The notes beneath the pieces are model-generated. The model was not told the origin of the DNA. It worked only from the letters and a program-made list of their open reading frames with translations, and searched no databases. Of a DNA stretch of 64,000 nucleotides, positions 2,513-63,076 are shown in pieces; position 1 is the stretch's first letter; each line of letters begins with the position of its first letter. The stretch lies in assembly GCA_963514005.1 (NCBI GenBank), contig OY740805.1:42222001-42286000 (forward strand), written 5' to 3'. This stretch comes from Raja brachyura (taxonomy: Eukaryota). The position numbers and the translations under genes were made by a program.

Positions 2513-3059
2513 CTAGATTTTCAGAAAGCCTTTGATAAGGTGCCACACGTGAGGCTGCTCAGGAAGATGAGAGCCCATGGTATCAAAGGGCAGATACTAG
2601 CATGGATAGCAGGTTGGCTGGATGGCAGAAGGCAAAGTGTGGCAATAAAGGGGGTTATTCTGGTTGGCTGCCAGTGACTAGCGGAGTTCTGTGGGGGTTG
2701 GTGCTGGGGCCGCTACTCTTCACGTTGTGTATTACTGATTTGGACGACGGGATAGAAGGCTTTGTGGCCAAGTTTGCGGATGATATGAAAATAGGTGGAG
2801 GGGCAGGTAGTGTGGAGAAAGTAGTGACTCTGCAGAAGGACTTGGACAGGTTGGGAGAGTGGGCAGAGAAGTGGCAGATGCAATATAGTGTAGCAAAGTG
2901 TGGAGTCATGCATTTTGGTAGTAGGAATAAAGATGCAGACTATTTTCTACATGGGGAGGGAATCCAGAAATCGGAGGTGCAAAGCGACTTGGGAGTGCTG
3001 GTGCAGGATTCCCCAAATGTTAATCTGGAAGTCAAATCAGTAGTAAAGAAACCAAATGC

Positions 3060-3928
3060 TTTCTGCCTCTGGCTGCTACAAATGTGAGAAGTGCATCCAG
3101 GTCCAGCTCCTGAAGGACCGTGTTGGGGAACTGGAGAAGCAAGTGGATGACCTCAGGTTCGTCCAAGAAACTGGGTCGTTCCTCGACAAGTCCTACAGTA
3201 AGATTGTTACACCTAAGGTACTGGAAGAGAGAAGGTGGGTGACGGTGAGAAAGGGAGGGAAACATGGAATGCAAAGGTCCCCGGGTGTTGTACCTCTTGT
3301 GAACAGGTTCACCCACTTAGAAGCTGTCGGGACAGAAGGCATTATCATACTGAGCGGCGGACTGGCTTACGAAGCAAAAAGTGCTGTTGAGCCAAAACCA
3401 AAGAGGCCAACGTCAGGCAACGCCATTGTAGTTGGAGACTCCATTGTGAGAGGTGCGGACAGGGGTTTCTGCAGGAACACACGGGATTCGAGGATGGTGT
3501 GCTGCCTTCCTGGTGCCAGGATCCAGGATGTCACGGACAGAGTGCAGAAAATCCTCAAGGGCGAAGGTGAACAGCCGGAAGTGGTAGTGCATGTCTGCAC
3601 AAACGATGTTGGAAAGAAGGGGATGAATATTCTGCAGCGTGACTTTAGAGAGCTCGGAAAAATGTTGAAAAGCAGGACCTCCAGGGTTGTTATCTCTGGT
3701 TTGCTTCCAGTTCGTCGTGCTGGCGAGAGCAGGAACAGGGAGATACAGGACCTGAATGTGTGGCTGAGGAACTGGTGCAGGGGGCAGGGATTTAGATTCT
3801 TAGATCACTGGGATCTGTTTTGGAGTAAGGGGAAACTGTACAAAAGGGACGGATTGCATCTTAACAGGTGGGGGACCAGCATTCTGGCAGGCAGGTTTGC
3901 CACTGCTACATGGGTGGTTTTAAACTGA
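3060..3928 (+). CDS. CR1 ORF1 (5'-truncated): CxxC, leucine zipper, SGNH/GDSL esterase
   Basis: CEKC, LKDRVGELEKQVDDL, GDSIVRG, CLPGA, VHVCTND (G>C), DGLHLN. Confidence 0.85.
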
Positions 3929-6168
3929 ATAAGGGGGATGGGGTGTCAAATGGGATAGTCGAGGATGGAGTTAAAGGGAAAGAGAGTAAAGGGAAAGCTA
4001 ATGATCCCAGAATTAATGGGAAAGGCTCACAAAGGGATAGGAGAGTACGGCCAAGTGTAATAGGGATCGATGTAAAAGGTGAGATGCGTAAGGAATTAAA
4101 AGTATTGTATATGAATGCGCAAAGTATAAGAAGTAAAATAGATGAGCTCGAGGCTCAGTTAGAGGTTGGTAGATATGACATTGTGGGGATTACTGAGACG
4201 TGGCTGCAGGAGGATCGGGCCTGAGAACTTAATATTCAGGGTTATACATCCTATAGAAAGGACAGGCAGGTGGGCAGAGGAGGGAGGGGGGTAGCTCTGC
4301 TGGTGAGGGATGGAATTCAGTCCCTTGCGAGGGAAGACATAGGGACTGACGAGGTAGAGTCACTGTGGATTGAGTTGAGGAATTGTAAAGGCAAGAAGAC
4401 ACTAATTGGTGTTATATACAGATCCCCAAATAGTAGCCGTGATGTAGGTTGTAAGTTGCAGCAGGAGTTAAAACTGGCATGTAACAAAGGTAATGTCACT
4501 GTGGTGATGGGGATTTCAATATGCAGGTAGACTGGGAAAATCAGGTTGGTTCAGGACCCCAAGAAAGAGAGTTTGTAGAATGCCTCCGAGATGGATTCTT
4601 AGAGCAGCTTGTAATGGAGCCGACCAGAGAAAAGGCAATTCTGGATTTAGTGTTGTCCAATGAACCAGATATGATAAGAGAACTCGAGGTAAAGGAACCG
4701 CTTGGAGGCAGTGATCATAATATGACTAGGTTTAATCTGCAAATGGAGAAGGAGAAGAGTAAATCGGAAGTGTCAGTGATACAGTTGAACAAAGGGGACT
4801 ATGAAGGCATGAGAGGGGAGCGGGCCAAGGTAGACTGGAATGGGATCCTAGCAGGAATGACGGTGGAACAGCAATTGAAGGAATTTCTGGGCATTATCCA
4901 AAAAACGCAGGATAATTTCATTCCAAAAAGGAAGAAAGATTCTAAGGGGAGTAGGAGGCAACCGTGGCTGAAAAGAGAAGTTAGGGATAGAATCAAACTA
5001 AAAGAAAAGATGTGAGCAGTAAGTAGCCGGAAGCCAGAGGATTGGGAAACATTCATAGGATAACAGAAAGAAACAAAACGGGCAATACGGACAGAAAAGA
5101 TGAAGTACGAAGGGAAGCTTGCCAGGAATATAAAGAAGGCGAGTAAAAGCTTCTTTAGATATGTTAAGAGAAAAAGAGTAGCAAAGTCAAATGTGGGTCC
5201 CTTGAAGGCAGACACGGGTGAAATGATTATGGGCAACAAGGAAATGGCAGAAGGGTTCAACGGGTAACCCTTCACTAAGGAAGACACAAACAATTTCCCA
5301 GATGTACTGGTGGACAGAGGATCTAAGCGGGTAGAGGAACTGAAATAAATTTTCATTAGGCGAGAAATAGTATTGGCTAGGCTAATGGGAGTGAAGGACG
5401 ATAAAACCCCAGGGCCTGATGGTCTGCATCCCAGGGTCCTCAGGGGGATGGCTCTAGACATAGTAGACGCATTGGTGATTATTTTCCAATGTTCAATAGA
5501 TTCAGGATCAGTTCCTGTGGATTGGGGGATAGCTAATGTTATCCCATTTTTCAAGAAAGGAGCAAGAGAGCAAACGGGGAATTACAGACCAGTTAGTGTG
5601 ACTTCGGTGGTGGGAAAGATGCTTGAGTCAATTATTAAAGAGGTAATAATGGGGCATTTGGATAGCAGTAAAAGGATTAGTCCAGGTCAACATGGATTTA
5701 TGAAAGGGAAATCATGCTTGACTAATCTTAGAAACATAGAACATAGAAAAATAGGTGCAGGAGGTAGGCCATTCAGCCCTTCGAGCCTGCATCGCCATTC
5801 AGTGTGATCATGGCTGATCATCCAACTCAGTATCCCGTACCTGCCCGCTCTCCATACCCCCTGATCCCTTTAGCCACAAGTGCCACTTCTAACGCCCTCT
5901 TAAATATAGCCAATGAACTGGCCTCAACTACCTTCTGTGGCAGAGAATAGTGAGATTGAACAAGAACTTACCAGTTCGAAGGTTGATCTTTATTTCATGA
6001 GGAGTTGCGGTGAGGGATTTCGTGAAGAGCCCGCCGGCACGCATGCGCGACATTCTTCAAGGTAGCGGTGTGGAATCACAGAAAACAACAACAGAAATGA
6101 CTTGGCATAGTAAGATTGAAGAGACTCTAATTACCAGTTGAGTATGATCGAGGGTTGGGAGCGGAGGG

Positions 6169-6280
6169 CACGAAATCCCTCACCGCAACTCCTCATGAAA
6201 TAAAGATCAACCTTCGAACTGGTAAGTTCTCGTTCAATCTCACTATTTCATTTCAGAGTCACGTGAGTGACTTCGTGAAG
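6169..6280. other. DIRS internal complementary region (ICR)
   Basis: 6169-6244 is the reverse complement of 5949-6024; 6245-6280 is the reverse complement of 11242-11277. Confidence 0.92.
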
Positions 6281-6439
6281 ACTTCAAAGCTCTGTGATTC
6301 CACGCCCTGGACCACGTCCATGCTGTCACACACCACTTATGAGGATGGATAGGAGTAATCAACTTTCCAGACTGCTTGTACTGAAAGACAAGAGCAACAT
6401 TGGTTAACAACAAAAGAAAACCCCTTATTCGGGGACATC

Positions 6440-7390
6440 TCCACGTTCTTGACCTGCATTCAGCACGGCCTCCGCGAACTGTAGAGGAGCGGCAACAGAT
6501 GTATTGTAGAACCACTGGAAGGTGGCTTCATTCGCCATCCTACTGTGGCAAGAATATGGTCCATGGGCACCTCCATGACCCTTGCCGCCGACGTTGATGC
6601 ATGCCCTGGTGGAATGGGATTTGAAGATATTAGTGTCAACACGTGACTTACCCAAGACGATCCTGAGCCACCTGGATATCGTCTGGACCGTCACTCTATG
6701 GTGAGGGTTCTCCATTCCTTTAGTTTTCTCGTCCCTTTCACAAAGTGACGGATATGGGCGGCTAAACATAGCCGTGCATCAGCGGGGTATGCCAGGAACT
6801 TCAGCTGCAGCCCTGTGTACCCAGGTCTATGCTGCTTGAGTAGCTCGTCTATGACGAAGACTACTTCCGCAGGGGTAGAGATCATCCTGTCGATCTGGAT
6901 TTTGCGGAGTGTCTGTACCCTCTGCGCTGAAGTCAGTGCCAGTAACATCACCAGCTTCAGGGTGAGTTTGTCCAGTTCCAGGCCCTCCATGGGCGACCAC
7001 GTCCTGAGCAGGGTGAGTATTTCCCCGATATCCCAGGTGATATTATAGCGTGGTCTGGGCGGATTCGAATTGAATATTTCCCGCATGAGTCTGGACACCA
7101 GCCTGTTGGATCCTACCTTAATATTGAGGTAGAATGACAGCGCACTTGAGGCGCTGTTGATGGCACTGTAGCTCAGGTGTTCATTATGATGCAACCCCGT
7201 CAGAATTCCAATACGTCGGTTATGGTTACAGCGTCGTAGGTAATATGGGAGCGGCCGCAGTAGGTTTCCCATTTCCGGATGTGAGAGAGGTATTGCCGCC
7301 TGGTGAACTCCCAGCATGACGCTCCGATGGTATCCATGGTTCTAGATGATATGCCATACCGCAGTAATGGCCTGTGCAGAACCTCCAAGC
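6440..7390 (-). pseudogene. DIRS tyrosine recombinase (frameshifted)
   Basis: AINSASSALS, LKLVMLLALTSAQRVQTL, FKSHSTRA, HILATVGW. Confidence 0.85.
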
Positions 7391-7449
7391 CAACATGTTT
7401 AGATGACTGTGGCAGGGATGTGGTCCCCCTGAGACAGGGTTTGTACCAA

Positions 7450-8180
7450 TTATGGGCAACCCTCTAAGAGGACCCAAGGTTGACTGATCATATCAAGGAC
7501 CACCGGATACCATGGCTGCGTAGGCCAGTCGGGTATGATAAGAATACCCTTAGCAGCATTTGTCTGGATTACCCGCAACACCCGACTGATGAGGCAAAAT
7601 GGAGGAAAGACATAGAAACCCATTTCCCTCAGTCCAGCGAGACGCATCCATCGCCATTGCCCCAGGATCGGGTCCCACAAACGTATGTTGGTACCTGATG
7701 GTTCAACCGTGACGCAAAGAGGTCGATATCCGGTTCACCAAATTTGGCAGTAATTTTAGCGGATATTTGGAGATTCATCATCCACTTGATGTGGTCATAG
7801 AATTTGCGTGACCTGATGTCCGCCACTGTGTAGAGCTCACCTGGGAAACAGGTAGCTGAAATCCAAATAGTCCGTCGAACACACCAGAGCCAAATTGTAT
7901 TTGTCAATTCATCACATGAAAGTCACCTGGTACCGCCCATATGGTTTAGATATGCCACCGCAGTGGTATTATTCATTTGGAGACGGACATGAGCATCAGT
8001 AAGGCTAGAACAATAAGCTCGAAGTCCGTGAAATGCTCCCAGCATCTCCAAATAGTTTATTTCTTGTGACAACAAGAAGGTAAATTCAAGGGTGTCCCAT
8101 CTGCCCTCACAACTGGAGCAGTTGTCCATAGCACCCCGGACATGGGAGCTTGCGTCTGTTTGTAAGTATACCATCGGATT
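7450..8180 (-). pseudogene. DIRS RNase H and N6-adenine methyltransferase-like domains (broken)
   Basis: QTDASS, INYLEML, NNTTAVAYLNHMGGTR; DIDLFASRLNHQ, YVFPPF, IPDWPTQPWYP. Confidence 0.85.
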
Positions 8181-11100
8181 GGCCAAAATGATGGATTTAA
8201 GTGAGACATAAATATTGTCAATCCTCCATTGTAACGCAATCTGTGCCTTGAAAGGCAGCTGCATTGGTCTATGGAAATGTCTAGCGTTCAGTTTTATCGC
8301 CGAGACCTTGGCGTTCTGCAAATTTGATAATGCAAAGGCCCGTATTGGGCAGCTGGAAAAACACTACAATCTTGCCAATCACCTTAGTAGTTTGTTGAAT
8401 TGATGGTATATTGGCCCAGACGAGACCCTACCATAGTTGGGTGACATCGCCAACCTAGTTAGTTGGTATGGTGGCCCTCACGTGATTGGAATCCACCGTA
8501 ACCCCAGATACCCTTAACCTGTGAAGGGCAGGACGTTGATTTATCTGGATGGGTAATGAACCCCATTTGCTGAAAAAATTTCCATGGGCTGAAACTGCCA
8601 GTTCGGCTGATTCCCAATAATTAGGATATCACCTAGACAGGCCAACACTATGTGATTTTGTCTCCTGGTGTAGCCAGTATTGATTGGAGCAATTTAGAAA
8701 TAATCTAGGGGTGTGTAAGCCCATTTGGTAAAGCTCTGTATAGCCAGAGCTGATCCATCCAGATAAATGGCAAGAACGTCCTGTGGCATTTCTGAATGGA
8801 TACTGAATGGCATGCATCTTTTAATCAATGCATGCCACAAAGCAGCCCCCAGAACCCAAGAACTTAGATGTCTGGAACGTTTCCAGTTTGAAATGGGTAT
8901 ATTCTACAAAAGTATTCAAATGGTTCAAATCAAAAAATAACCCGACATCCTCCATCCCTCCTTGTGACTGTAAATTTTTCAGCATAGCCTACTGCCGCTC
9001 TTTGCTGGACAGTGTAAATTTCCGATCTGCATATGCTGGGATGGAGGGATGTCACCATTGATGAATTCAATCGCATGGCCTTGAATACTTTGTAAGATAA
9101 ACTCATCAGACGTGATGGGACCGCATGCCCCCGGAAAGAGCCGTAGTCTCCCACCAACATGTGAAGTTCAACATGCAGGTGCATGAAATCCAGACCACCT
9201 TACCGTCATGGTTATCGGCGGCCCTTGAGATGCATGGCCGGATGTGGAGGTGCTGGATTCTGAAAATTGAGGCGGAGCTGGAGCGGAGGCCCTTGCTGGC
9301 CTAATGGCAGGGCCTTGCCTGGTCGAGATATGTGACCACATGAGTCCCACCATCGTAGCGTGGTCATCCCGCTCCTGGACCCTCTTGGGGAGGTCTTCCC
9401 CGAAAATTTTGATTCTGTTGCAGGAGGAGCTCCAACATCCGCTCCATCCTGGCCAATACGCCCCTCGGCCTTAGAACTCGGGCGGACGGAGTCCTTATGT
9501 TCTGCTGAACTGCTGGGGCTTCGTCCATCGGTCCGCACCTCGTCGAGGTGAACCCGGTGCCGGAAGTTGTCGCCGGCAGCCGCTGCAGCGAAGCTGAGCG
9601 ATTCCCGCGCGGGAGGTACGCTCAAACGCCTCCTCGGCGGAGCTTGATCCCGCTGCCCCGGAGGGCAAATGCGGCGGGGAGTCGGCACCTGACTTAGCAT
9701 GGAGACCCGACGCCCGCGCGGGCTTGCCGGCTGCCCACATCATGGACCTTGCCGACGCATGGTCTCGTCCTCCCATCCATGCGGGACTCGGCGACCGTGG
9801 CGTATTGACTATGGGCTCGTTGAAGGGAGTAGCAGTTCGCTGGGCTTTGTGACTGGTTTTAAGGCCTCCGATAGGACCTCCTCCTGGAGCTGATGTTTGG
9901 TCAGGAAGTCCACGGTGGCTGCCAGTTTGGGGTTGCGGGGGTAGTCCCGATGTCTCTGACAATCCTCTGGCTGCCTCAGGCTCCTGCTGACGATGGTGAA
10001 ACCTCCCTGTGCCCACTGGAGCTGGATGCTTCCTCCCGATGAATCTGTTGCAGGAGGAGCTCCAGTAGCCGCTTCATGCGGCCAATACGCCCTTCACCCT
10101 GAACACTCGGGCGGTCGGAGTCCTCAGGCTCTGAAGCACTGCCGAGGCTCCTATCATCGGCCCGCACCTCGTCGAGGTGAACCCGGTGCCGGTATTTGTC
10201 GCTGCCAGCCGCCGCAGCGAACTGAGCGATTCCCGCGCGGGAGGTGTGTTCAACCGCCTCCGTTTGGCGGGAGCTGAAGCCGCTGCTACTGAGGGCAAAT
10301 GCGGCGGGGAGTCGGCACCAGCCTCAGCATGGAGACCCGACGCCCGCGCGGGCTTGCCGGCTGCCCACGTCGTGGACCTTGCCGACGCATGGTCTCGTCC
10401 CCCCATTCATTGGGGACTCGGCGACCGTGGCGGGACCCTACCCAAATGACCCGTCCCGGCGTCGGAGGTTGGGGGGTCGACACTGCCTCACAGTGGACCT
10501 GGGTCCCGCCTTTGAACCAGTCCGCAACTCGGCGGCAGGTAATGCCTTAGCCCCAGAAGGGTTAGGCTTGCGAGCTCCTTCCCTCCCCCTACTCGGAGGG
10601 CTGAGGGAGAAGGGCCGTGCAGCCGCACGCGAGCCCTTGCCCGAGGCCGCCAACGGGCCCGTTGGCGACCTGAATACTGAAGCAGGGTCCATCTGCCCCT
10701 TGCGCACTGGAGCTTCTGCTCCTCGAATCAGCACTGGAGCCCCTGCACAGCGGCGGGTCGGGCCCTGTAACAACAGGGCTCCCCGACTTCCACGCCCATT
10801 TCCCGGCCACGTACCTGTGAGGAGAGAACACACTTCATACTCGCCACAACAGGACACCAACTCCCACTGGAGCTCCGGTGTATCGGCGGGTCCAGCCCTG
10901 TACCAACAGGGCTCCCCGACTACCACGCCTATTTCCCGGCCCGACTCGCAGGTGAGCCGTTGAGGAGGACTCCGGGATAAGTGGCCGGCGACTCCAAATC
11001 CGCACCTTGTCGAGGTGAACCCGGTGCCGGTATTTGTCGCTGCCAGCCGCCGCAGCGAACTGAGCGATTCCCGCGCAGGAGGTGTGTTCAACCGCCTCCG

Positions 11101-13244
11101 TTTGGCGGGAGCTGAAGCCGCTGCCACTGAGGGCAAATGCGGCGGGGAGTCGGCACCAGCCTCAGCATGGAGCCGCGCTCCCCACCAGCCGTCGGCAGCA
11201 ATGCGTTGCGAAGATATGTCGCGCATGCGTGCCGGCGGGCTCTTCGCGAAGTCACTCACGTGACTCCGAAATGAAATTCCAGAGACTCACCACTCTCTGT
11301 GTAAAGAATGTTTTCCTCATCTCGGTCCTAAAGGAATTTCCCCCTTATCCTTAGACTGTGACCCCTTGTTCTGGACTCCCCCAACATCGGGAACAATCTT
11401 CCAGCATCTAGCTTGTCCAACCCCTTAAGAATTTTGTAAGTTTCTATAAGATCCCCCCTCAATCTTCTGGAATTTTTTGAGGATGTGACAAGTAAAATGG
11501 ATGAAGGGGTGCCAGCGGATGTAGTATATGTAGACTTTCAGAAAGCCTTTGATACGGTCCCGCACGGGAGACTGGTGACTAAAATTAGAGAACATGGTAT
11601 TGGAGGTAGGGTGTTGACATGGATAGAAAATTGGTTGGCAGACCGGAAGCAAAGAGTAGGAGTGAACGGGTCCTTTTCAGAATGGCAGGCAGTGACGAGT
11701 GAAGTGCCACAAAGCTCTGTGTTGGGGCCGCAACTGTTTACCATTTATATTAATGATTTGGAAGAGGGAATTATGAGCAACACTAGCAAGTTTGTGGATG
11801 ACACAAAGCTGGGTGGCAGTGTGAACTGTGAAGAGGATGTTGGGAGGTTGCAGGGAGACCTGCACAGGTTGAGTGAGTGGGCAGATGCGTGGCAGATGCA
11901 GAATATAGATAAATGTGAGGTTATCCACGTTGGTGGCAAAACAAGGCGGCAGATTATTATCTCAATGGGGTTAGGTTAGGTAAGGGGGAGGTGCAGCGAG
12001 ACCTGGGCCTATCACCTACCACTGAAAGTTGGCTGACAGGTACAGCAGGCAGTGGAGAAAGCTAATGGAATGTTGCCCTTCATAACAAGAGGATTTCAGT
12101 ATAGGAGTAAAGAGGCTCTTCTGCAGTTGTGTAGGGCTCTGGTGAGACCACATCTGGACTATTGTGTACAGTTTTGGTCTCCTAATTTGAGGAAGGACAT
12201 CCTTGCGATTGAGGAAGTGCACTATCGGTTCACGAGATTGATCCCTGGGATAGCGGGACTGTCATATGAGGAAAGATTGAAAAGAATAGGCTTGTATTCA
12301 CTAGAGTTTAGGATGAGGGGGGATCGTATAGAAACATGTAACATTATAAAAGGACTGGACAAGCTGGATGCAGGAAAAATGTTCCCAATGTTGGGCGAGT
12401 CCAGAACCAAGGGCCACAGTCCTAGAATAAAGGGAAGGTCATTTAAGTCTGATGTGAGAAAAAACGTTTTCACCCAGAGAGTTGTGAATTTATGGAATTC
12501 CCTGCCACAGAGGGCAGTGGAGGCCAAGTCACTGGGTGGATTTAAGAGCGAGTTAGAGCTCTAGGGGCTTGTGGAGTCAAGGGATATGGGGAGAAGGCAG
12601 GCATGGGTTATTGATAGGGGACGATCAGCCATGATCACAATGAATGGCGGTGCTGGCTCGAAGGGCCGAATGGCCTCCTCCTGCACATATTTCCTATGTT
12701 TCTATGTTTCTTAAACGCAATGCTAGCATTTGTTTGAAGAGGGCTAGTATACAAAATTAGGGATGTAATGCTGAGGCTCCATAAGGTGTTGGTCAGCCCG
12801 CATTTGAAGCAATTTTGGGCACCTTATCTGAGGAAGCATATGCTGGCTCTGGAGCGGGTCCAGAGGAGGTGTATTCCAAGAATGATCCCAGGAATGAGTG
12901 GGTTAACATATGATGAGTGTTTGACGGCACTGGGCCTGTACTCACTGGAGTTTAGAACAACGAGGGGGGACCTCATTGAAGCTTACAGAATAGTGAAAGG
13001 CTTGGATAGAGTGGATGTGGAGAGGATGTTTCCACTGTCGGAAGAGTCTTGGATAGACACAAAAAGCTGGAGTAACTCAGCGGGACAGGTAGCATCTCTG
13101 GAGAAAAGGAATGGGTTCATTCTCTCCAGAGATGCTGCCTGTCCCGCTGAGTTACTCCAGCTTTCTGTGTCTATATGTGGTCTGAAGGATCTTTTCCTGT
13201 ACTGTTCTATGTTCTATGTTTTGTTCTGAGCGTAGTCACTGTAT

Positions 13245-19557: not shown

Positions 19558-19677
19558 CTTTAATCATTTTATCTTCTTTTCTGTGCAACATTATATCGAA
19601 AGCAGCAGCCATAACCACGAGGGCCGCAAACGCCCAGAAAACCAGCAGCCAAGGGTTGGTTTTAGGAAATAACTCAT
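19558..19677 (-). pseudogene. BTN-like transmembrane exon (DELFPKTNPWLLVFWAFAALVVMAAAFDIMLHRKEDKMIK)
   Basis: 120 bp, tgtAG acceptor, GTGAGA donor, phase 1-1, hydrophobic stretch then basic residues; not in ORF track. Confidence 0.8.
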
Positions 19678-20493: not shown

Positions 20494-20771
20494 CTGATAT
20501 CTGGAGATGGGCCTCTCGTGTTTTCCCCGTTGATCTACTTCATATGAAACAGGAATACCTGTTCACAGAATCACTTGTGATATCGATGTGACTGTGGACA
20601 GTGATCAGCCCGCTGGAGTCCTCAGTGTGGCAGACCGCGCTGTTACATCTTGTCCACTCCCATCCAGCCACCGTATCTCCGGCTTGGGAAACCATCCATT
20701 CAACTTACACACCACACGCACTCCTTGCGTGGTGCTTTCCTCCAAGCGGATCCAGGGCCGGAAGCCAAATC
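20494..20771 (-). pseudogene. BTN-like IgC exon with frameshift and premature stop
   Basis: GVRVVCKLNGWFPKPEIRW...NRYSCFI*SRSTGKTREAHLQIS; 278 bp (not 3n); AG/GT borders. Confidence 0.88.
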
Positions 20772-22635: not shown

Positions 22636-22983
22636 CTTCAACCTGCAGCCGCAGCGCCGCCTGGTGACTGGACGTGGGGGTGCTGATGGAACACGTGTAG
22701 ATTCCAGCATCTGATACTTTGACCATCTTCAGTTTAAACGATGCGTTTCCACGGGGAAACTCTTCCCGAATAAGCTCCGTCCTCCCTCGGTAAGCCCCGT
22801 CCTGCACCTCAGCTCGGTCCTGGCCGCCAGTGTATAAATGTACCGGTGACCTCGGGCTCGTTGTAAACCATCGGACCTCCAGAGCGTCCAGTGATGTATC
22901 CGGTACCTTCTGACATTCTAACACGGCATCTTCACCCACCATGGCCACCACCGGATAGTCCGGCACAATCACAGAGAACTCCT
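22636..22983 (-). pseudogene. BTN-like IgV exon, open reading frame (part of a gene disabled elsewhere)
   Basis: 348 bp, phase 1-1; FSVIVPDYPVVAMVGEDAVLEC, EVRWF, VHLY, YRGRTEL, GNAS, VKVSDAGIYTC. Confidence 0.92.
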
Positions 22984-23125
22984 CTAGAAAATACAATGGT
23001 TAAGCTTCAGAATATTTGTAGAATCTTTCCTGCTGGCGATTTAAAGAAAGCAAATGTGATTATTTTGTTATAGTTTGGAACTCTTCCAAATGTCATTGGT
23101 CTGGATACTTTGCTCTTAGTCTTTC

Positions 23126-24671
23126 AATCCACCCCCAACGTATCTCCGGCTTGGAAACCATCCATCGGACTTACACACCACACGTACTCCTTGCGTGGTG
23201 CTTTCCTCCAAGCGGATCCAGGGACAGAGTCAGGGCCAGGTTTATATTCTTCAAAGAATAAACCTAGCAATTATAGACCTGTTAGTTTGGCATCAGTGGT
23301 GGGCAAATTAATGGAAAGGATACTTAGAGATAATATATATAAGCATCTGGATAAACAGGGTCTGATCAAGAACAGTCAACATGGATTTGTGCCTGGAAGG
23401 TCAAGTTTGACAAACCTTCTTGAATTTTTTGAAGAGGTTACTAGGAAAATTGATGAGGGTAAAGCATGGGATGTTGTCTATATGGATTTCAGTAAGGCCT
23501 TTGACAAGGTTCCCCATGGAAGGTTGGTTAAGAAGGTTCAATCTTTGGGTGTTAATGGCGGAGTAGCAAGATGGATTCAACAGTGGCTGAATGGAAGATG
23601 CCAGAGAGTAATGGTGGATGGCTGTTTGTCAGGTTGGAAGCCGGTGACCAGTGGGGTGCCTCAGGGATCTGTGTTGGGACCACTGTTGTTTGTCATGTGC
23701 ATCAATGATCTAGATGATGGGGTGGAAAATTGGATAAGTAAGTATGCAGATGATACTAAGATAGGTGGTGCTGTGGATAATGAAGTAGATTTTCAAAGTC
23801 TACTAAGAGATTTGGGCCATTTGGAAGAGTGGACTGAAAGATGGCAGATGGAGCTTAATGCTGATAAGTGTGAGGTGCTACATCTTGGCATGACAAATCA
23901 AAATAGGACATACATGGTAAATGGTAGGGAATTGAGGAATGCTGTGGAACAGAGGGATCTAGGAATAACTGTGCATAGTTCCCTGAAGGTGGAATCGCAT
24001 GTAGATAGGGTGGTAAAGAAAGCTTTTCGTGTGCTGGCCTTTATAAATCAGAGCATTGAATATAGGAGTAGGGAAGTGATGTTAAAATTGTACAAGGCAT
24101 TGGTAAGACCAATTCTGGAGTATGGTGTACAATTTTGGTCACCTAATTATAGGAAGGATGTCAACAAAATAGAGAAAGTACAGAGGAGATTTACTATATT
24201 GTTGCCTGGGTTCAAGCAACTAAGTTACAGAGAAAGGTTGAACAAGTTAGGTCTTTATTCTTTGGAGCGCAGAAATTTAAGGGGGGGACTTGATTGAAGT
24301 CTTTAAAATGATGAAAGGGATAGACAGAGTTGACGTGGATAAGCTTTTCCCATTGAGGGTAGGGAAGATTCAAACAAGAGGGCATGACATGAGAATTAAG
24401 GGACAAAAGTTTAGGGGCAACATCAGGAGGAACTTCTTTACTCAGAGTGTGGTGGCTGTGTGGAATGATCTTCCTGCAGAAGTGGTGGAGGCAGGATCGA
24501 TTTTAACATTTAAAAGTAAAGTGGATAGGTATATGGATGGGAAGGGAATGGAGGGGTATGGTCTGAGTGCAGGTAGATGGGACTAGGGGAAAATAAATGG
24601 TCGGCACGGACTGGAAGGGCAGAGAAGGCCTGTTTCCGTGCTGTAATTGTTATATGGTTATAGTCCAAATC
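23126..24671 (-). pseudogene. Second IgC exon copy, 5' part only (24662-24671 + 23126-23231), split by CR1
   Basis: High similarity to 20665-20771; upstream intron 24672-24776 matches 22015-22118. Confidence 0.85.
23232..24661 (+). mobile_element. Young 5'-truncated CR1 (long RT ORF)
   Basis: NYRPVSL, QGSVLGPLLF, YADD; AGTC on both flanks (23228-23231, 24662-24665). Confidence 0.92.
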
Positions 24672-29505: not shown

Positions 29506-29627
29506 TCCCACAATTCAAAGCAAGGGAGAAACTTGAACTTCCCAGTAAACTCCCAGCCTGTGGAGCTGTTTACTGACATTCCCGGTGTAAACCCTGGTGT
29601 GAACTCTATTCCTCCAGAAGGGCTCAC

Positions 29628-29813
29628 CTTCAACCTGCAGCCGCAATGCCGCCTGGTGACTGGACGTGGGGGTGCTGATGGAACACGTGTACATTCCAGC
29701 ATCTGATACTTTGACCCTCTTCAGTTTAAGCGATGCGTTTCCACGGGGAAACTCTTCCCAAATAAGCTCCGTCCTCCCTCGGTTAGCCCCGTCCTGCACC
29801 TCAGGTCGGTCCT
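29628..29813 (-). pseudogene. Second IgV exon copy, 5' half deleted
   Basis: RGRTELIWEEFPRGNASLKLKRVKVSDAGMYTC...LQVE; near-identical to 22636-22822; donor retained. Confidence 0.9.
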
Positions 29814-30070
29814 GAGGTGCAGGACCGACCTGAAAAGAAAAGCAAATGTGATTCTTTTGTTATAGTTTAGAACTCTTCCAAATATCATTGGTCTGGATAC
29901 ATTGCTCATATGAAAGATTCAATGCATAATGAAAGCTGCTGCATATATTTTCAACCGGAAACATCACCTATTCCTCTGCCTGACCCAGTGAGCTGTTCCA
30001 GCATTTTGTGTCCGCCTTCGGTATAAACTAGCCTCTGCAGTTCAATAGCCACATATTCTCGTGTACTTTC

Positions 30071-30909: not shown

Positions 30910-30959
<50 letters not shown>

Positions 30960-30963
<4 letters not shown>

Positions 30964-31340
30964 CCCCGGGGAGGGGGACCGGTGGCTGAGGATACAGCCA
31001 CGGATGGAAGCTGGCAGAGAGCACGGTTGCAGAGTGGAGGATGCAGCTTCACCTCGCTGTTGTTCCCGGCTGGAGTTACCATCAGTGTCTGGAATCTGCC
31101 CTCGCCCTGCCTGCAGTCAACCCCAGTTAAAGCTTTTTGTTTCATCTTCAGAGTCTGAGGATCGATTTCACACCAAAGTGAAACACAGCTGTGATGGCCA
31201 TTCACTGGAACACTGACAACCGAGCGTTGAGAAGATTTACCCAACTTTGGTAATGTTTAATTTTCTTTAGTTCAGAGATACAGCATGCCCTCTGCCCCAC
31301 CGAGTCGATGCTGACCATCGATCGCCCGTTCACACATGCA
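30960..31340. repeat. Duplicated segment (copy at 40232-40627)
   Basis: Near-identical ~290-bp unique sequence plus the same SINE tail, both preceded by TG/TA microsatellite. Confidence 0.9.
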
Positions 31341-31460
31341 CAATGTTACCCCAGGAGCCGCTGGAAGGTGGAAGCCCCGCGGAGAGTGCTCTGGTTTCCC
31401 ACTGAAGTTACAGTGGGAATCTGGCAGAAACCCGCCCGGATTTCCTGACCTGCATCTTAC

Positions 31461-31589
31461 GCTGTTGTTTGATGCGTCTGTTTTGTTTCACGTTCCAATA
31501 AAACACAGCAACGTGGGCGGCATTGAGAAGACAAATGGTGAGGACCAGCGGCAGGGCCCAGTCAGGAACTCCAGCAAGGAAGATATCAT
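31461..31589 (-). pseudogene. Orphan BTN-like TM exon of a second type (DDIFLAGVPDWALPLVLTICLLNAAHVAVFYWNVKQNRRIKQQ)
   Basis: 129 bp, GTAAGA donor in phase 1; acceptor reads GG instead of AG. Confidence 0.65.
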
Positions 31590-32210: not shown

Positions 32211-32945
32211 TTTATTTGTATATACACATACGCGCACACACACACATATATATATATTTAATGAGAGAGAGGGTAGGGGGGTGAGAGACCATGGGAGAGA
32301 GAGAGAGAAAAGAGAGAGTAGCAGAGAAATGAGAGAGAAATAAGAGAGAGAGAGTGGGACAGAGTGAGAGAGAGTGAGAAATGAGAGAGAGGAATGAGAG
32401 AGAGACAGAGATAGATAGAGAGACAGATATAGAGAGATTGTACTCTATCACACACGGCATCAGACCGGTCTCTTTACACCGAAGATCCTACAGTTTGCTG
32501 CAGGAACCGTGCTTCACTCTCCACCACACGCGGCATCAGACCTCACGATCACTTCACTCTGTCTGTCCGTCCGTCCCCGGGTCCAACCGCCAACCGTTTG
32601 AATTCCAACCGCCCAACCGCCGCCCCCTGACCACGTGACCGCTCGGCGCAGATCACGCGCGGTCCACGCGACAGTTGCAGCGCGACCACCCACTGTTGGC
32701 TGGCAACACGCCTCAGCCCCACACACACTCACGCTCACACACGTACACACAGAGACACACGCACACACAGACTCACACACAACTCACGCAGGCACACAGA
32801 CACTCACACACATATGTGTATATATATATATCGGTCTATGATTACACACATACATTAACATGGGCCGCGGAAGGCTGCTTTCACCAACCACTCCCATTTG
32901 AAGGTCACTATCTTCCACCGCTTCTACCCAGTGCTTGGTACCTAC

Positions 32946-33096
32946 TTCCAGCAGCCACTGGTTGTCCTCCAGGATGTACCGAGCCGCAGCCTGGTCCATG
33001 CCGGTCACCAGAGCTAATTGGGCGCAGAGACTCTCTCTCACGGCAGCGGCGCAACGTCTCCGACGGCCCGGGACTCGTGCACTGAGGCTGCTCCAT
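32946..33096 (-). pseudogene. TDP2: TDP2-like exon 1 (UBA-like domain), frameshifted
   Basis: RESLCAQLALVTGMDQAAARYILEDNQWLLE then GTAGGT donor; resembles the TDP2 N-terminal UBA-like domain; ATG-to-donor is 151 nt. Confidence 0.55.
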
Positions 33097-33107
33097 GGAA
33101 ACCGTCA

Positions 33108-34003
33108 ACACCCGGCCCCGCGCACCAACCCTGTCACGTGACACACCCGGCCCCGCGCACCAACCCTGTCACGTGACACACGCGGCCCCGCGCACCAACC
33201 CTGTCACGTGACACCCCCGGCCCCACGCGCCAACCCTGTCACGTGACACACAACCGGCCCCACGCGCCAACCCTGTCACGTGATACACCCGGCCCCACGC
33301 ACCAAGCCTGTCACGTGACACACAACCGCCCCGCGCACCGACCCTGTCACGTGACACACAACCGGCCCCGCGCACCAACCCTGTCACGTGACACACCCGG
33401 CCCCACGCGCCAACCCTGTCACGTGACACACCGGCCCCACGCGCCAACCCTGTCACGTGACACACCCGGCCCCACGCACCAACACTGTCACGTGACACAC
33501 CCGGCCCCGAGCACCAACCCTGTCACGTGACACACCGGCCCCACGCGCCAACCCTGTCACGTGACACACCCGGCCCCACGTACCAAGCCTGTCACGTCAC
33601 ACACCGGCACCAACCCTGTCACGTGACACACCGGCACCAACCCTGTCACGTGACACACCCGGCCCCGCGCGCCAACCCTGTCACGTGACACACCCGGCCC
33701 CACGCGCCAACCCTGTCACGTGACACACACGGCCCCACGCACCAACCCTGTCACGTGACACACACCCGGCCCCACGCGCCAACCCTGTCACGTGACACAC
33801 CCGGCCCCGCGCGCCAACCCCGTCACGTGACACACCCGGCCCCGAGCGCCAACCCTGTCACGTGACACACCGGCCCGCGCACCAACACTGTCACGTGACA
33901 CACACGGCCCCGCGCACCAACCCTGTCACGTGACACACACGGCCCCATGCACCAACCCTGTCACGTGACACACCGGCCCGACGCACCAACCCTGCCACGT
34001 GAC
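33108..34003. repeat. ~35-bp GC-rich minisatellite, ~26 units, each with TGTCACGTGACA
   Basis: Counted directly. Confidence 0.95.
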
Positions 34004-34652
34004 AGGCAGTCGCGAGTGGAGTGCCGTAAGGCTCGGTGTTGGGGCCGCAACTGTTTACCATATATATTAATGATTTGGAAGAGGGAATTAGGAGCAACAC
34101 TAGCAAGTTTGCGGATGACACAAAGCAGGGTGGCAGTGTGAACTGTGAAGAGGATGTTAGGAGGTTGCAAGGTGACCTGGACAGGTTGAGTGACTGGGCA
34201 GATGTGTGGCAGATGCAGTATAATATAGATAAATGTGAGGTATCCACTTTGGTGGCAAAAACAAGGGGGCAGATTATTATCTCAATGGGGTTAGGTTGGG
34301 TAAGGGGGAGGTGCAGCGAGACCTGGGCGTCCTTGTACACCGGTCACTGAAAGTTGGCGTGCAGGTACAGCAGGCAGTGAAGAAAGCTAATGGAATGTTG
34401 GCCTTCATAACAAGATAGTTTCAGTATAGGAGTAAAGAGGTTCTTCTGTAGTTGTATAGGGCTCTGGTGAGACCACATCTGGAGTATTGTGTACAGTTTT
34501 GGTCTCCTAATTTGAGGAAGGACATCCTTGTGATTGAGGCAGTGCAGCGTAGGTTCACGTGATTGATCCCTGGGATGGTGCAACTGTCATATGAGGAAAG
34601 ATTGAAAAGACTGGGCTTGTATTCACTGAAGTTTAGAAGTATGAGTGGGGAT
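34003..34652 (+). mobile_element. CR1 RT fragment
   Basis: LGPQLFTIYINDL, KFADD; very similar to 11686-12320. Confidence 0.88.
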
Positions 34653-37600
34653 TGTGGGGCGCTACTCTGTGAACGACTCGTGGCGCGCTGCTCCCGTATG
34701 TTTCCATGTTTTATGAGTTGTTTAGTGTTTTTCTAAGAGTCATTAAGTCCGGTATTTAACGATAGCAAGTATGATTACCACTGTCAAGTATTTAGCGAGT
34801 TTGTGTGTTCTGACCACCTTTTTGCAGCCAGTATTTGCGATATGTATTACACCGGCAAATCCCATGACACGCCATGGAGGGAGGCTCACCTACTCACGGG
34901 ACACTTTGCAGGATCTGCGGCCTGCTTCCGGCCTACAAGCGACACCTTCTACCCTGAATGGGATTCCTCAGCTACAGAGGAATCATTGCATCAAGCACAT
35001 TCATAGGAAAAGGGGAGCCAGAGGAGGAATACGGAACAGAATGAGGAGACGAGGTAGGAGGCTGCCACTACCTGCAATAACTCTCTCCAATGTGCGGTCA
35101 CTACGCAACAAAATAACTGAACTTTCCGCACTCATTAAATTTGACTTAGACTACCGTCAAACAAGTCTCTTTTGTTTCACGGAGACATGGTTGTCAGAAG
35201 AAATAACCAATGTCGATATTGATGAATTTAAGATCATCCGTTTTGATAGAGGCACTAGGATGACGCGGAAGTCGATTGGGGGCGGGCTCTGCATAGCTGT
35301 CAACACAAAGTGGGCTGTCAACTTCACTATCAGAGAGACTGAATGCAGCAAACACCACAAAACCATGACGGTGTCGTTCAGGCCTCACTACCTTCCCCGT
35401 GAATTCACACAGATCACAGTTATCCTAGCGTATGTCCCTGGACCTGATAACGCATTTGCTGCGGAGCGCATTGCTGACTGTTTCAACAGAGCTGTCAATC
35501 AGAGCAGCGATCAGCCTGTCTTCCTGCTTGGGGATTTTAACAGATGCGATGTCACCACATTGCTTCCAAACTTGGAGCAGTATGTTACCACACCTACCAG
35601 ACTTGACAGAATGCTGGATATGTGTTTCGGTAACATACCGGGAGCCTATGTTTCAAAGTCCCGCCCACCACTGGGACGCTCCGACCACAATGTCATTCTG
35701 CTGCTTCCAAAATACAGACAAAAATTAAAAACAGAAGATATACAAACAAAAACTATTCAAGTCTGGAACGATGACTCTGTCGATGCATTAAGGGGCTGCA
35801 TGGAGATCACTGACTGGGAAATATTGTTCCAAAGCTGTGAGGGAGACCTAAATCTGCTGACAGACTCTATCTCCTCCTATTTGTCATTCTGTGTGGACGC
35901 TGTTATACCAACAAAACAGGTCAAGCTGTACCACAATAACAAGCCTTGGGTTACCAAGGACCTGAAGCAGTGTCTTAAAAACAAAAAAGTGGCATTCCAA
36001 CAGGGAGACAAACACAGAGTAAAACAGTATAATAGTGAGTTGAGAAGGAAGACCAGGCAGGCCAAACGCCACTACAAAAACAAAGTGGAGGAAAAATTCA
36101 CCACTGGCAATGCAAGGGAGCCATGGCAGGGACTTAGCACCATGATGGGCAGAGCCCAGAAACCGGCCCTGATCCAATGCTCTGACCCCGCCACATTTGC
36201 TGAGCAACTCAACATCTATTACAGCAGGTTTGATAGACCACACCCCCAGAATGACTGGACCCTCACCAGCAGTCCATCAATCACAGTGGATAAAAGGAAG
36301 GTTACATCTATACTGGGCCGCATCAACCCTCACAAAGCTTCTGGCCCAGACAGGCTCAGGGGCAAGGTGCTGAGGGAATGCTCAGTTCAGCTGGGTGATG
36401 TCATCACTCAGCTATTCCAACATCTCCTTGACTCCAGCTGTGTCCCACGGATGTGGAAGGAGTCTACACTTATACCGTTGCCGAAGAAATCTAACGCCAG
36501 GGAGACGAAGGACTTCAGACCGGTAGCACTCACATCCATTCTTTCCAAGTGTATGGAGAGGGTGGTAAGTGACCACCTCACTGCTATGGTGGTGGACAGG
36601 CTTGACCCACTCCAGTTCGCCTATAAGGCAAGGCGTGGTGTGGAGGATGCCTGTTTGACTCTCCTGGACACAGTTAGCAGACAGCTGGACTCCCCACACC
36701 CCCACACATGGATTTTATTTATGGATTTTTCTTCCGCTTTTAACACAGTCAACACAGTCACCCTCTGCAACCGCCTTCTGGATCTACAAGTCAACCCATC
36801 ACTTATCCTGTGGATAAAAGACTTCCTGCAGGACCGGCCACAGCATGTGGTGGTAAATGGTTTTAAATCCAAGAACATGATTTTAAACACTGGTGTCCCC
36901 CAGGGTTGTGTTTTATCACCGATCTTATTTTCCATCTACATGAACAATGTAACAAACAATAACAGTGACATTCCCCTTTTTAAGTATGCAGACGATATGG
37001 CCCTGGTGGCCCACATCAAGGATCACACTTCTCTGGCTGCCTACTATCAGCAGGTCAACATCTTGATGCTGTGGATCAAAGAGAGCTCTCTGGAGCTTAA
37101 CATCTCCAAGACCAAGGAGCTGTGTTGTGGGGGAAGGCGAACATCTTCCCCTCAACCTCTCTTTGAACCTCTGAGGCTGAATGGGCAGACAGTCGAGCAG
37201 GTAGAGGCCTTTAGATACCTGGGCACAGAGATTGACACCCGCCTGTCCTTCTCCCAGCACACAGACTCGGTGTACAAGAAGGCACAGCAACGCCTGTTCC
37301 TGCTGAGGAAACTCAGGAGCTTTGATGTCAGACAGGACATTTTAACAGCTGTATATAAATCACTTATAGAATCTGTACTCACCTTTAACATCACATCCTG
37401 GTTCACCCTTACCTCTGTCAAAGACAAATCAAAGCTTTCCCGGATCATCAATCAAGCAAGCCAAATAACTGGCAAAACTCAAATTCAATTGTCAGTACTT
37501 CACACCCAGGCAGTTAAAAGGAAAGCCAACCTCATTACACAGGATCCCACCCACCCCCTGCACAAGTCCTTCCAACTTCTGCCATCAGGCCGCCGACATA

Positions 37601-37926
37601 AAGTCCCCCTATCCAAGAAAAACATCCACAAAAACTCATTCATACCCATTGCCATAAATAGTTTAAATAATACATGATCAATGGACAAATTAACCCTGAC
37701 GCACTGTCACTTTACACGTATCCACAACTTTCAACTTTTATCTTGTCTATTTTTACAGTTTCTAATCTTTATATTTGTTTTTAAGACCTATACACACTGA
37801 GTGTGCCCGCAGAAGGCTGTGTTGTATGATGACTGTTGTATATTGTCTTGTTGTATGTTGAGCCACGTCAAAGAAGATTTTCTGTTACGACAGACAATAA
37901 AGTTTTCTGAATCTGAATCTGAATCT
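34653..37926 (+). mobile_element. Full-length Rex1/Babar LINE
   Basis: Short 5' UTR, single ORF, AATAAA and (TGAATC)3 tail; no TSD seen. Confidence 0.93.
34771..37677 (+). CDS. Rex1/Babar APE endonuclease-reverse transcriptase, 968 aa, intact
   Basis: SNVRSL, FTETWL, GDFN, SDHN; FRPVALT, QGCVLSP, YADD; LLPSGRR. Confidence 0.93.
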   Translation: MITTVKYLASLCVLTTFLQPVFAICITPANPMTRHGGRLTYSRDTLQDLRPASGLQATPSTLNGIPQLQRNHCIKHIHRKRGARGGIRNRMRRRGRRLPLPAITLSNVRSLRNKITELSALIKFDLDYRQTSLFCFTETWLSEEITNVDIDEFKIIRFDRGTRMTRKSIGGGLCIAVNTKWAVNFTIRETECSKHHKTMTVSFRPHYLPREFTQITVILAYVPGPDNAFAAERIADCFNRAVNQSSDQPVFLLGDFNRCDVTTLLPNLEQYVTTPTRLDRMLDMCFGNIPGAYVSKSRPPLGRSDHNVILLLPKYRQKLKTEDIQTKTIQVWNDDSVDALRGCMEITDWEILFQSCEGDLNLLTDSISSYLSFCVDAVIPTKQVKLYHNNKPWVTKDLKQCLKNKKVAFQQGDKHRVKQYNSELRRKTRQAKRHYKNKVEEKFTTGNAREPWQGLSTMMGRAQKPALIQCSDPATFAEQLNIYYSRFDRPHPQNDWTLTSSPSITVDKRKVTSILGRINPHKASGPDRLRGKVLRECSVQLGDVITQLFQHLLDSSCVPRMWKESTLIPLPKKSNARETKDFRPVALTSILSKCMERVVSDHLTAMVVDRLDPLQFAYKARRGVEDACLTLLDTVSRQLDSPHPHTWILFMDFSSAFNTVNTVTLCNRLLDLQVNPSLILWIKDFLQDRPQHVVVNGFKSKNMILNTGVPQGCVLSPILFSIYMNNVTNNNSDIPLFKYADDMALVAHIKDHTSLAAYYQQVNILMLWIKESSLELNISKTKELCCGGRRTSSPQPLFEPLRLNGQTVEQVEAFRYLGTEIDTRLSFSQHTDSVYKKAQQRLFLLRKLRSFDVRQDILTAVYKSLIESVLTFNITSWFTLTSVKDKSKLSRIINQASQITGKTQIQLSVLHTQAVKRKANLITQDPTHPLHKSFQLLPSGRRHKVPLSKKNIHKNSFIPIAINSLNNT

Positions 37927-61836: not shown

Positions 61837-63076
61837 GGAGTGTGGTCTGTGTGGCACTGGGCTACATCTACAATGCTGGGGAGTGTGGTCTGTGTGATGG
61901 ACTTGGCTCCATCGACAATGGTGGGGAGTGTGGTCTGTGTGATGGACTTGGCTCCATCTACAATGGTGGGGAGTGTGGTCTGTGTGGGACTGGGCTCCAT
62001 CTACAATGGTGGGGAGTGTGGTCTGTGTGGGACTGGGCCACATCTACAATGGTGGGGAGTGTGGTCTGTGTGGGACTGGGCTACATCTACAATGGTGGGG
62101 AGTGTGGTCTGTGTGGGACTGGGTCACATCTACAATGGTGGGGAGTGTGGTCTGTGTGGGACTGGGCTACATCTACAATGGTGGGGAGTGTGGTCTGTGT
62201 GGGACTGGGCTCCATCTACAATGGTGGGGAGTGTGGTCTGTGTGGGACTGGGCTACATCTACAATTGTGGGGAGTGTGGTCTGTGTGGGACTGGGCTCCA
62301 TCTACAATGGTGGGGAGTGTGGTCTGTGTGGGACTGGGCCACATCTACAATGGTGGGGAGTGTGGTCTGTGTGGGACTGGGCTACATCTACAATGGTGGG
62401 GAGTGTGGTCTGTGTGGGACTGGGCTACATCTACAATTGTGGGGAGTGTGGTCTGTGTGGGACTGGGCTCCATCTACAATGGTGGGGAGTGTGGTCTGTG
62501 TGGGACTGGGCCACATCTACAATGGTGGGGAGTGTGGTCTGTGTGGGACTGGGCCACATCTACAGTGGTGGGGAGTGGTCTGTGTGGGACTGGGCCACAT
62601 CTACAATGGTGGGGAGTGTGGTCTGTGTGGGACTGGGCCACATCTACAATGGTGGGGAGTGTGGTCTGTGTGGGACTGGGCCACATCTACAATGGTGGGG
62701 AGTGTGGTCTGTGTGGGACTGGGCCACATCTACAATGGTGGGGAGTGTGGTCTGTGTGGGACTGGGCTACATCTTCAATGGTGGGGAGTGTGGTCTGTGT
62801 GGGACTGGGCTACATCTACAGTGGTGGGGAGTGTGGTCTGTGTGGGACTGGGCTACATCTACAATGGTGGGGAGTGTGGTCTGTGTGGGACTGGGCTACA
62901 TCTACAATGGTGGGCAGTGTGGTCTGTGTGGGACTGGGCTACATCTACAATGGTGGGGAGTGTGGTCTGTGTGGGACTGGGCTCCATCTACAATGGTGGG
63001 GAGTGTGGTCTGTGTGGGACTGGGCTACATCTACAATGGTGGGGAGTGTGGTCTGTGTGGCACTGGGCTACATCTA
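61837..63076. repeat. 43-bp minisatellite (~29 units) derived from Rex1 coding sequence
   Basis: Unit GGGGAGTGTGGTCTGTGTGGGACTGGGCTACATCTACAATGGT; Rex1 remnant adjoining at 63077-63298 (-). Confidence 0.9.

Follow-up and report, generated by a model that had tools for sequence, protein, structure and literature searches.

A CLEAR-type E-box minisatellite beside a frameshifted TDP2 exon-1 remnant in the skate Raja brachyura

A stretch of 64,000 nucleotides from Raja brachyura (contig OY740805.1, positions 42,222,001 to 42,286,000 of the forward strand), hereafter the window, contains a tandem array of CLEAR-type E-boxes beside a TDP2-like exon in a neighbourhood of butyrophilin-like (BTN-like) exons. 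The question raised by this locus is where the array came from and whether it controls anything. The whole is probably best read as the duplicated and dead 5' end of TDP2 with an E-box minisatellite in its CpG island, for which no selected function is needed. The array is real and probably without selected function; at most it would work like the E-box repeats of human TYMS and hTERT.

The array and the exon beside it

The array is located at positions 33108 to 34004 (no strand assigned) and was identified with Tandem Repeats Finder as a GC-rich minisatellite of period 35 bp, with 26.0 copies and 89% matches in one haplotype. Its head-to-tail units fall within the 10-100 bp of a minisatellite and, cut at the terminal CLEAR-type E-box that each one carries, number 26, with lengths of 27-37 bp and 22 distinct sequences. 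CACGTG is present in 25 of the 26 units, so the E-box occurs in most of them as in an E-box regulatory VNTR; TCACGTGA was found in 24 units (24 sites within 0.9 kb), the 12-bp palindrome TGTCACGTGACA in 22, and the CLEAR consensus 10-mer GTCACGTGAC was exact in 23. A first-pass annotation, made from the sequence alone, had described a minisatellite of about 26 units of about 35 bp, the palindrome in nearly all units, a CLEAR match and a beginning about 12 bp upstream of an ATG; all four points agree with these counts and with the 11 nt that separate the ATG at 33096 (minus strand) from the array edge. The shuffled whole window is expected to contain 0.05 copies of GTCACGTGAC, and a single unit of the composition of the array gave the 10-mer in 5 of 400,000 shuffles. 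Since the 23 copies are one event that was copied, the fair comparison is of one site with either of these two figures.

Within the window the unit is confined to this place: all 26 near-matches in the whole window fall inside the array, and the best score elsewhere in the 64 kb was 26, inside the range of 23-38 given by 30 shuffled units. A prokaryotic origin or host contamination was rejected with 0 matches to the unit in prokaryotic genomes and genome bins, a search that is uninformative on the fish genome. No description of the locus was found in the literature, the supplementary repeat and pseudogene tables of skate genome papers lying outside that search. Among the matches listed, none was by its title or the start of its abstract a CLEAR-site tandem array of such kind, none joined TDP2, butyrophilin and cartilaginous fish, and none contained the phrase 'TDP2 promoter'; skate-genome work mentioning TDP2 was not found either.

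Unit variants are interspersed along the array, with all four haplotypes of two variable columns present, and unit divergence does not rise with distance (rho -0.02, p 0.73). Interspersed variants together with the absence of such a trend are the usual sign of minisatellite turnover, and the interspersion suggests that turnover has taken place here. A G-quadruplex is a weak candidate as driver of the expansion (G4Hunter-type mean 0.88, 13% of windows at 1.2 or above, 0-1 canonical motif), the hairpin within one unit is negligible (-1.0 kcal/mol), and no Rfam match to a structured RNA was obtained in the 64-kb window.

The adjoining exon is a remnant of TDP2 exon 1 of 151 nt (32946 to 33096, minus strand), extending from an inner Met codon to a GT donor. 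In tblastn with TDP2 of Leucoraja erinacea the match was divided between two frames (joint E=1e-14): residues 1-25 are in frame -2, beginning at 33096, residues 24-54 are in frame -3, ending at 32946, and the switch falls in a GA run at 33039-33031. The ATG at 33096 thus belongs to frame -2, not to the frame -3 of the UBA part, and does not encode the UBA domain. The UBA-like segment matched Pfam UBA_4 with E=3e-4 and 21.0 bits, just below the cut-off of 21.8, and shares 40 of 49 residues with exon 1 of L. erinacea TDP2; exon-1 identities to the skate TDP2 proteins XP_055510903.1, XP_032869397.1 and XP_078283247.1 were 40/49, 39/49 and 38/48 residues. A 40-residue query of the exon returned two proteins among 66 candidates, namely L. 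erinacea TDP2 and an unnamed protein of 112 residues. The TDP2 identity given at first pass is therefore sustained by the tblastn match and the shared residues. From the accompanying claim, an ATG heading a UBA-like exon that keeps its donor, the UBA-like segment and the donor (GAA/GTAGGT, after 32946) are retained, but the ATG is out of the UBA frame. Lying in a short run of a dinucleotide, the frameshift could also result from misassembly; the assembly contains three N gaps.

Beyond the donor the start of a TDP2-like intron 1 (32874 to 32945, minus strand) was recognised by its match to two unnamed exon-1 proteins that read through the splice site, with 20/24 and 17/24 identical residues. 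Since the start of intron 1 is retained, the fragment is a genomic duplicate and neither a retrocopy nor a processed pseudogene. TDP2 exons 2 onward gave no tblastn match in the 64 kb (next-best E=0.77), of which 32.9 kb were available downstream, so that of TDP2 the window contains the UBA-like exon 1 and none of the exons of the exonuclease-endonuclease-phosphatase domain; later exons could lie past the window if intron 1 is longer than 33 kb.

The Met at 33096 is an inner one in 5 of the 6 relatives with an exon-1 N-terminus (TDP2 of Amblyraja and Rhinoraja, the Amblyraja TDP2-like protein and the two read-through proteins), which have at least 32 in-frame residues upstream; the Leucoraja model alone starts there. 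Relatives thus have 32-36 additional in-frame codons, coding or part of an open 5' UTR, in the position that the array occupies here. The skate TDP2 proteins and the TDP2-like XP_032895808.1 of A. radiata share the exon-1 identity, but the window copy consists of exon 1 only, frameshifted, with neither the upstream extension nor the phosphodiesterase domain. A linker shorter than in L. erinacea TDP2 was rejected as a sign of decay, relatives varying from 13 to 17 residues. XP_032895808.1 (P0008), a TDP2-like paralogue, is on a contig of the same size as that of TDP2 and is annotated without the UBA part; together with P0001, P0024 and P0026 it suggests repeated duplication of TDP2 5' ends among skates.

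CpG state and possible activity of the array

The array contains 98 CpGs with an observed/expected ratio (o/e) of 1.12, compared with 0.52 in the whole window and 0.31-0.40 in three LINE stretches that were measured. The CpGs had been called undecayed, which holds for the one in the E-box, intact in 26 of 26 units, but not for two spacer columns, which read CA in 12 and 13 of the 24 full-length units (two 27-bp units left out). In both columns all changes are to CA (25) and none to TG, so that one strand alone is affected, a pattern expected of two old changes propagated by turnover and not of recurrent deamination. The three stable CpGs present 1 transition in about 152 cells versus 4 in 384 non-CpG cells, a comparison of non-independent units in which these CpGs were picked post hoc, after setting the two variable columns aside; counted by cells, all five CpGs give an about tenfold excess of change. 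Pooled over five duplicate pairs elsewhere in the window, the CpG excess is 3.3 (range 0 to 10.3). If the two columns are single events, the substitution spectrum leans towards low germ-line methylation, although the low CpG decay could instead reflect the youth of the array. The germ-line methylation state matters because USF2 has been reported unable to bind methylated E-boxes (PMC8201134).

Array and exon are covered by a CpG-island-like run (32857-34143) with GC of 0.65 and o/e of 0.97. These values exceed the usual thresholds of more than 500 bp, GC above 0.55 and o/e above 0.65; as the window contains 13 such runs of at least 400 bp, the island call is weak by itself. A second CpG-rich patch (32440 to 32710, no strand assigned, o/e 1.17) contains one CACGTGAC, at 32632, four CCAACCG and one TTTGAA, motifs which we take to be MYB-like and CHR-like, and it looks like another captured promoter piece. 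Derivation of the array unit from this patch was rejected, the score being reached by 344 of 1000 shuffles and by 707 of 1000 with the E-box kept.

It appears rather likely that the array is largely unmethylated in the germ line, which would allow USF, MYC:MAX or MiT/TFE dimers to bind it by analogy with the TYMS and hTERT repeats. The effect of the hTERT repeat VNTR2-1 is said to depend, in its primary study, on the E-box. This repeat is a 42-bp minisatellite of intron 2 and resembles the array in its length and in having CACGTG in many units (PMC2915984); greater length of the repeat is reported to give higher hTERT activity (Xu et al. 2021, cited in PMC9755275). It differs in being intronic in a working gene, with polymorphism and function measured. 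The human TYMS enhancer region (TSER), a 28-bp repeat with USF1 sites, is likewise described as a GC-rich tandem repeat just 5' of the start codon with one USF-type E-box per unit and variants in which the site is retained or lost (PMC7712088). As described there, TSER has mostly 2-3 units with the weaker CACTTG and controls an intact gene, whereas here 26 units with the full palindrome stand in front of a frameshifted orphan exon. The link to an intact gene that defines repeats of the TYMS and hTERT kind is missing, the TDP2 exon being frameshifted and alone and the BTN-like copy being broken in the window.

The sequence GTCACGTGAC is reported as the CLEAR consensus of lysosomal genes, bound by TFEB and TFE3 and also by MYC (PMC8105738). 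Because it takes MYC and USF as well, TFEB cannot be told from these factors by the sequence. In CLEAR promoters the element stands once or a few times in front of an intact gene of lysosomal function or autophagy, whereas the array has the exact 10-mer 23-fold and adjoins a TDP2 fragment, not the promoter of a TFEB-responsive gene of that class.

Should the array instead be a plain neutral minisatellite, methylated or closed, the E-box would be incidental and neither binding nor transcription would be expected. Conservation of the E-box does not significantly exceed that of the remaining positions (its 6 of 24 columns hold 1 of 13 variant alleles, p=0.13), for which reason selection on it was rejected; the 11-nt core TGTCACGTGAC has the fewest variant alleles per column of the three parts of the unit (0.36 vs 0.43 and 1.0). 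E-box palindromes are also met in other repeats of the window, with five TCACGTGA outside the array where 0.7 are expected and four GGCACGTGCC, the setting is dense in LINEs, and the island call has the weakness already stated. Against these points stand the rarity of the exact CLEAR 10-mer in such composition right beside a housekeeping-gene start, the contrast in CpG o/e with the three LINE stretches, and the absence of the unit from the rest of the window. On balance a plain minisatellite is unlikely.

Origin of the unit and of the fragment

An amplified promoter E-box is the likeliest, although unproven, origin of the array unit. A genomic duplication would have brought a piece of the 5' end of skate TDP2, or of a TDP2-like paralogue, into a rearranged butyrophilin-like cluster, where it would have died. 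A 35-bp piece of CpG-island promoter with one CLEAR-type E-box would have been placed beside the inner ATG through a deletion, and then multiplied by ordinary minisatellite turnover (slippage, unequal exchange and conversion). Chances are about even that the unit came from the TDP2 CpG-island promoter through this deletion and amplification. Since the position of the array corresponds to the 5' part of exon 1 in relatives, a promoter origin requires a deletion of about 100 nt or more. What is directly observed is a fragment limited to exon 1 and early intron 1, with a frameshift, the 5' part of the exon missing, a LINE at the far end of the array and neighbours most of which are broken.

That LINE is a 5'-truncated piece (34000 to 34652, plus strand) joined to the last array unit; the profile match itself is to RVT_1, and we take the piece to be CR1-like. 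At the array/LINE junction 4 of 5 bases agree with the LINE consensus. On neither side of the array is the native promoter context preserved. An open LINE frame of 976 codons with endonuclease and reverse transcriptase (34747-37677, plus strand) is inserted into the older LINE piece beside the array.

The genomic context also indicates displacement. Full-length TDP2 is on contigs of 139.7, 151.6 and 116.5 Mb in three skates, and the closest BTN-like proteins of these skates are on contigs of 0.1, 33.3 and 41.5 Mb, different from those of TDP2 in the three cases; since TDP2 and its closest BTN-like genes are on different contigs, the fragment was moved here. TDP2 and BTN are syntenic in human 6p22, and this arrangement was rejected as an explanation of the neighbourhood, being mirrored in none of the three skates.

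A different source for the unit would be the exon itself: it may be a rearranged piece of the exon-1 extension of relatives (the G-L-A-S-V-C-G-A-G stretch), with the E-box arising by mutation in former exon sequence. By eye the minus strand of the unit reads G-L-(A/V)-R-G-A-G, and when it was aligned with gaps to Rhinoraja TDP2, 27 of 29 fixed bases agreed. However, the anchored alignment was reached by 86-125 of 300 shuffles, and local protein and DNA tests were matched at best by 27 of 400 shuffles and in their sum by 56 of 400. In five relatives the score of the upstream 47 nt was reached by 52-172 of 300 shuffles, while the positive control, the first 47 nt of the exon, was reached by 0 of 300 in 5 of 5 relatives. 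Homology to relatives consequently stops at about the ATG. These tests exclude an intact colinear homology and not a heavily deleted derivative, and an origin in the exon extension is quite improbable.

Butyrophilin-like neighbours and possible products

The BTN-like parts (IgV, IgC and B30.2) were identified on the minus strand with Pfam, PDB and protein searches, and the exons were mapped with 15 named relatives of 16 (one unnamed left out). Downstream of the TDP2 piece, and in order of distance from it, the minus strand contains an orphan transmembrane exon with GG replacing the AG acceptor (31432 to 31589), an IgV exon reduced to its 3' half, with 93% identity to the IgV at 22.6 kb (29626 to 29828), an IgC fragment (23119 to 23229), an intact IgV exon of 348 nt, phase 1, with both cysteines and no stop (22636 to 22983), an IgC exon of 278 nt with a frame change and a stop after 54 of 92 codons (20494 to 20771), and an intact transmembrane exon of 120 nt, phase 1, with AG and GT present (19558 to 19677). 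Two B30.2 exons lie upstream of the TDP2 piece, that at 45.6-45.9 kb interrupted by a stop and that at 51.2-51.7 kb open, and none was found downstream of it in the window. No BTN leader exon was found in the window, the best score being 18 compared with 40 among real leaders. A complete butyrophilin gene, with leader, IgV, IgC, transmembrane and B30.2 exons ordered and open, is therefore not present in the window.

Butyrophilins have been described in cartilaginous fish before (PMC12841164). The intact IgV is 86-89% identical to skate proteins and 61-70% to those of other rays and sharks. The skate butyrophilin 1A1-like genes XP_032903494.1, XP_055486409.1 and XP_078271832.1 are those with 86-89% IgV identity, and their IgV, IgC, transmembrane and B30.2 parts are all represented here; the window differs from them in that a leader exon was not found, the IgC is broken and the parts are out of order on the strand. 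The BTN cluster named at first pass is thus made of genuine BTN-like exons, most of them broken (the GG acceptor, the half IgV, the IgC stop). The further proposal was that the array could drive transcription into the BTN exons downstream; that it drives a working BTN gene is not supported, as the first exon downstream has no AG, a half IgV comes next, the IgC is frameshifted and a leader was not found.

Weak promoter activity of the array is possible but doubtful. Spliced without skipping, a transcript through IgV and IgC would run into a premature stop and would lack a signal peptide; in the spliced IgV-IgC frame this stop is placed about 110 nt before the next junction. A transcript with a premature stop at that distance from a junction is a likely target of decay.

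Splicing that skips the broken IgC would have a different outcome. In such a promoter capture the array would drive a chimeric, E-box-controlled mRNA from the TDP2 exon to IgV and then to the transmembrane exon, yielding a leaderless BTN-like protein or a regulatory RNA. From ATG to donor there are 151 nt without a stop, ending in phase 1, the IgV and transmembrane exons are open, in phase 1 and with intact splice sites, and the donor would be in phase 0 without the frameshift. Phase agreement by chance, however, is 1 in 3; the splice must jump 10 kb, past four pyrimidine-rich AG sites (including that of the half IgV), and skip IgC; the product would have no signal peptide and no B30.2 exon follows in the window; and protein searches, which are weak for chimeras, returned no such molecule. 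A capture of this sort is highly improbable. Its most specific form is extremely so: the captured housekeeping 5' end would be a new TFEB/USF-driven promoter, tunable by copy number, with its first exon, and the frameshift from phase 0 to phase 1 would enable an in-frame splice to IgV and then to the transmembrane exon of a leaderless single-Ig protein. If the chimeric transcript exists, it would represent an early stage in the birth of a gene through promoter capture within an immune cluster, made possible by the frameshift.

Titration of TFEB, USF or MITF in trans, which had been proposed for bHLH-ZIP factors in general on account of the array, has in its favour the density of TCACGTGA in 0.9 kb but is hardly credible, since the five further TCACGTGA in the other 63 kb of the window correspond to about 80 per Mb and more than 100,000 per genome (taking a genome of 2 Gb or more and presuming many of the sites to be methylated), and bHLH-ZIP factors are present in thousands of copies or more per nucleus, so that 24 sites are negligible against both numbers.

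The duplicated TDP2 5' end with its amplified E-box leaves existing knowledge of TDP2 and of butyrophilins unchanged. If it is the true explanation, the locus would be a natural example in which a dead gene fragment carries a perfect CLEAR site amplified 23-fold, a ready reporter for the effects of site number and 35-bp spacing on USF/TFEB activation, and a place to test whether an orphan CpG island is protected from methylation by bound factors.

Several other elements were identified in the window. Four GGCACGTGCC palindromes (38981, 40140, 40790 and 44281) are located beside short inverted repeats with CGCATGCG nearby, forming MITE-like elements that carry E-box palindromes. A GC-rich element (5946-11368 and 38002-38107) has internal repeats and related ends with TCACGTGA at 6259, 11256 and 38086; a recombinase-type retroelement reading of the ORFs at 6.4-8.4 kb was rejected, with no Pfam and no useful PHROGs match. 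Three related GC-rich pieces, 70-78% alike (39142-39435, 43189-43396 and 43728-44015), are possibly other duplicated 5' ends, and one of them adjoins AAGATGGCGG at 39494, presumably a YY1-like start context, with an ORF from 39491 that has no Pfam match. The two copies of a 424-bp duplicate (30938-31353 and 40211-40634) share 92% identity, and their CpG transition excess is 7.5. A GDSL/SGNH esterase-like frame of 293 codons is found at 3047-3928 (plus strand), which we take to be of the kind present in LINE ORF1. Finally, a second minisatellite (61837-63076) comprises 28.8 copies of 43 bp with 96% matches and a consensus free of CpG.
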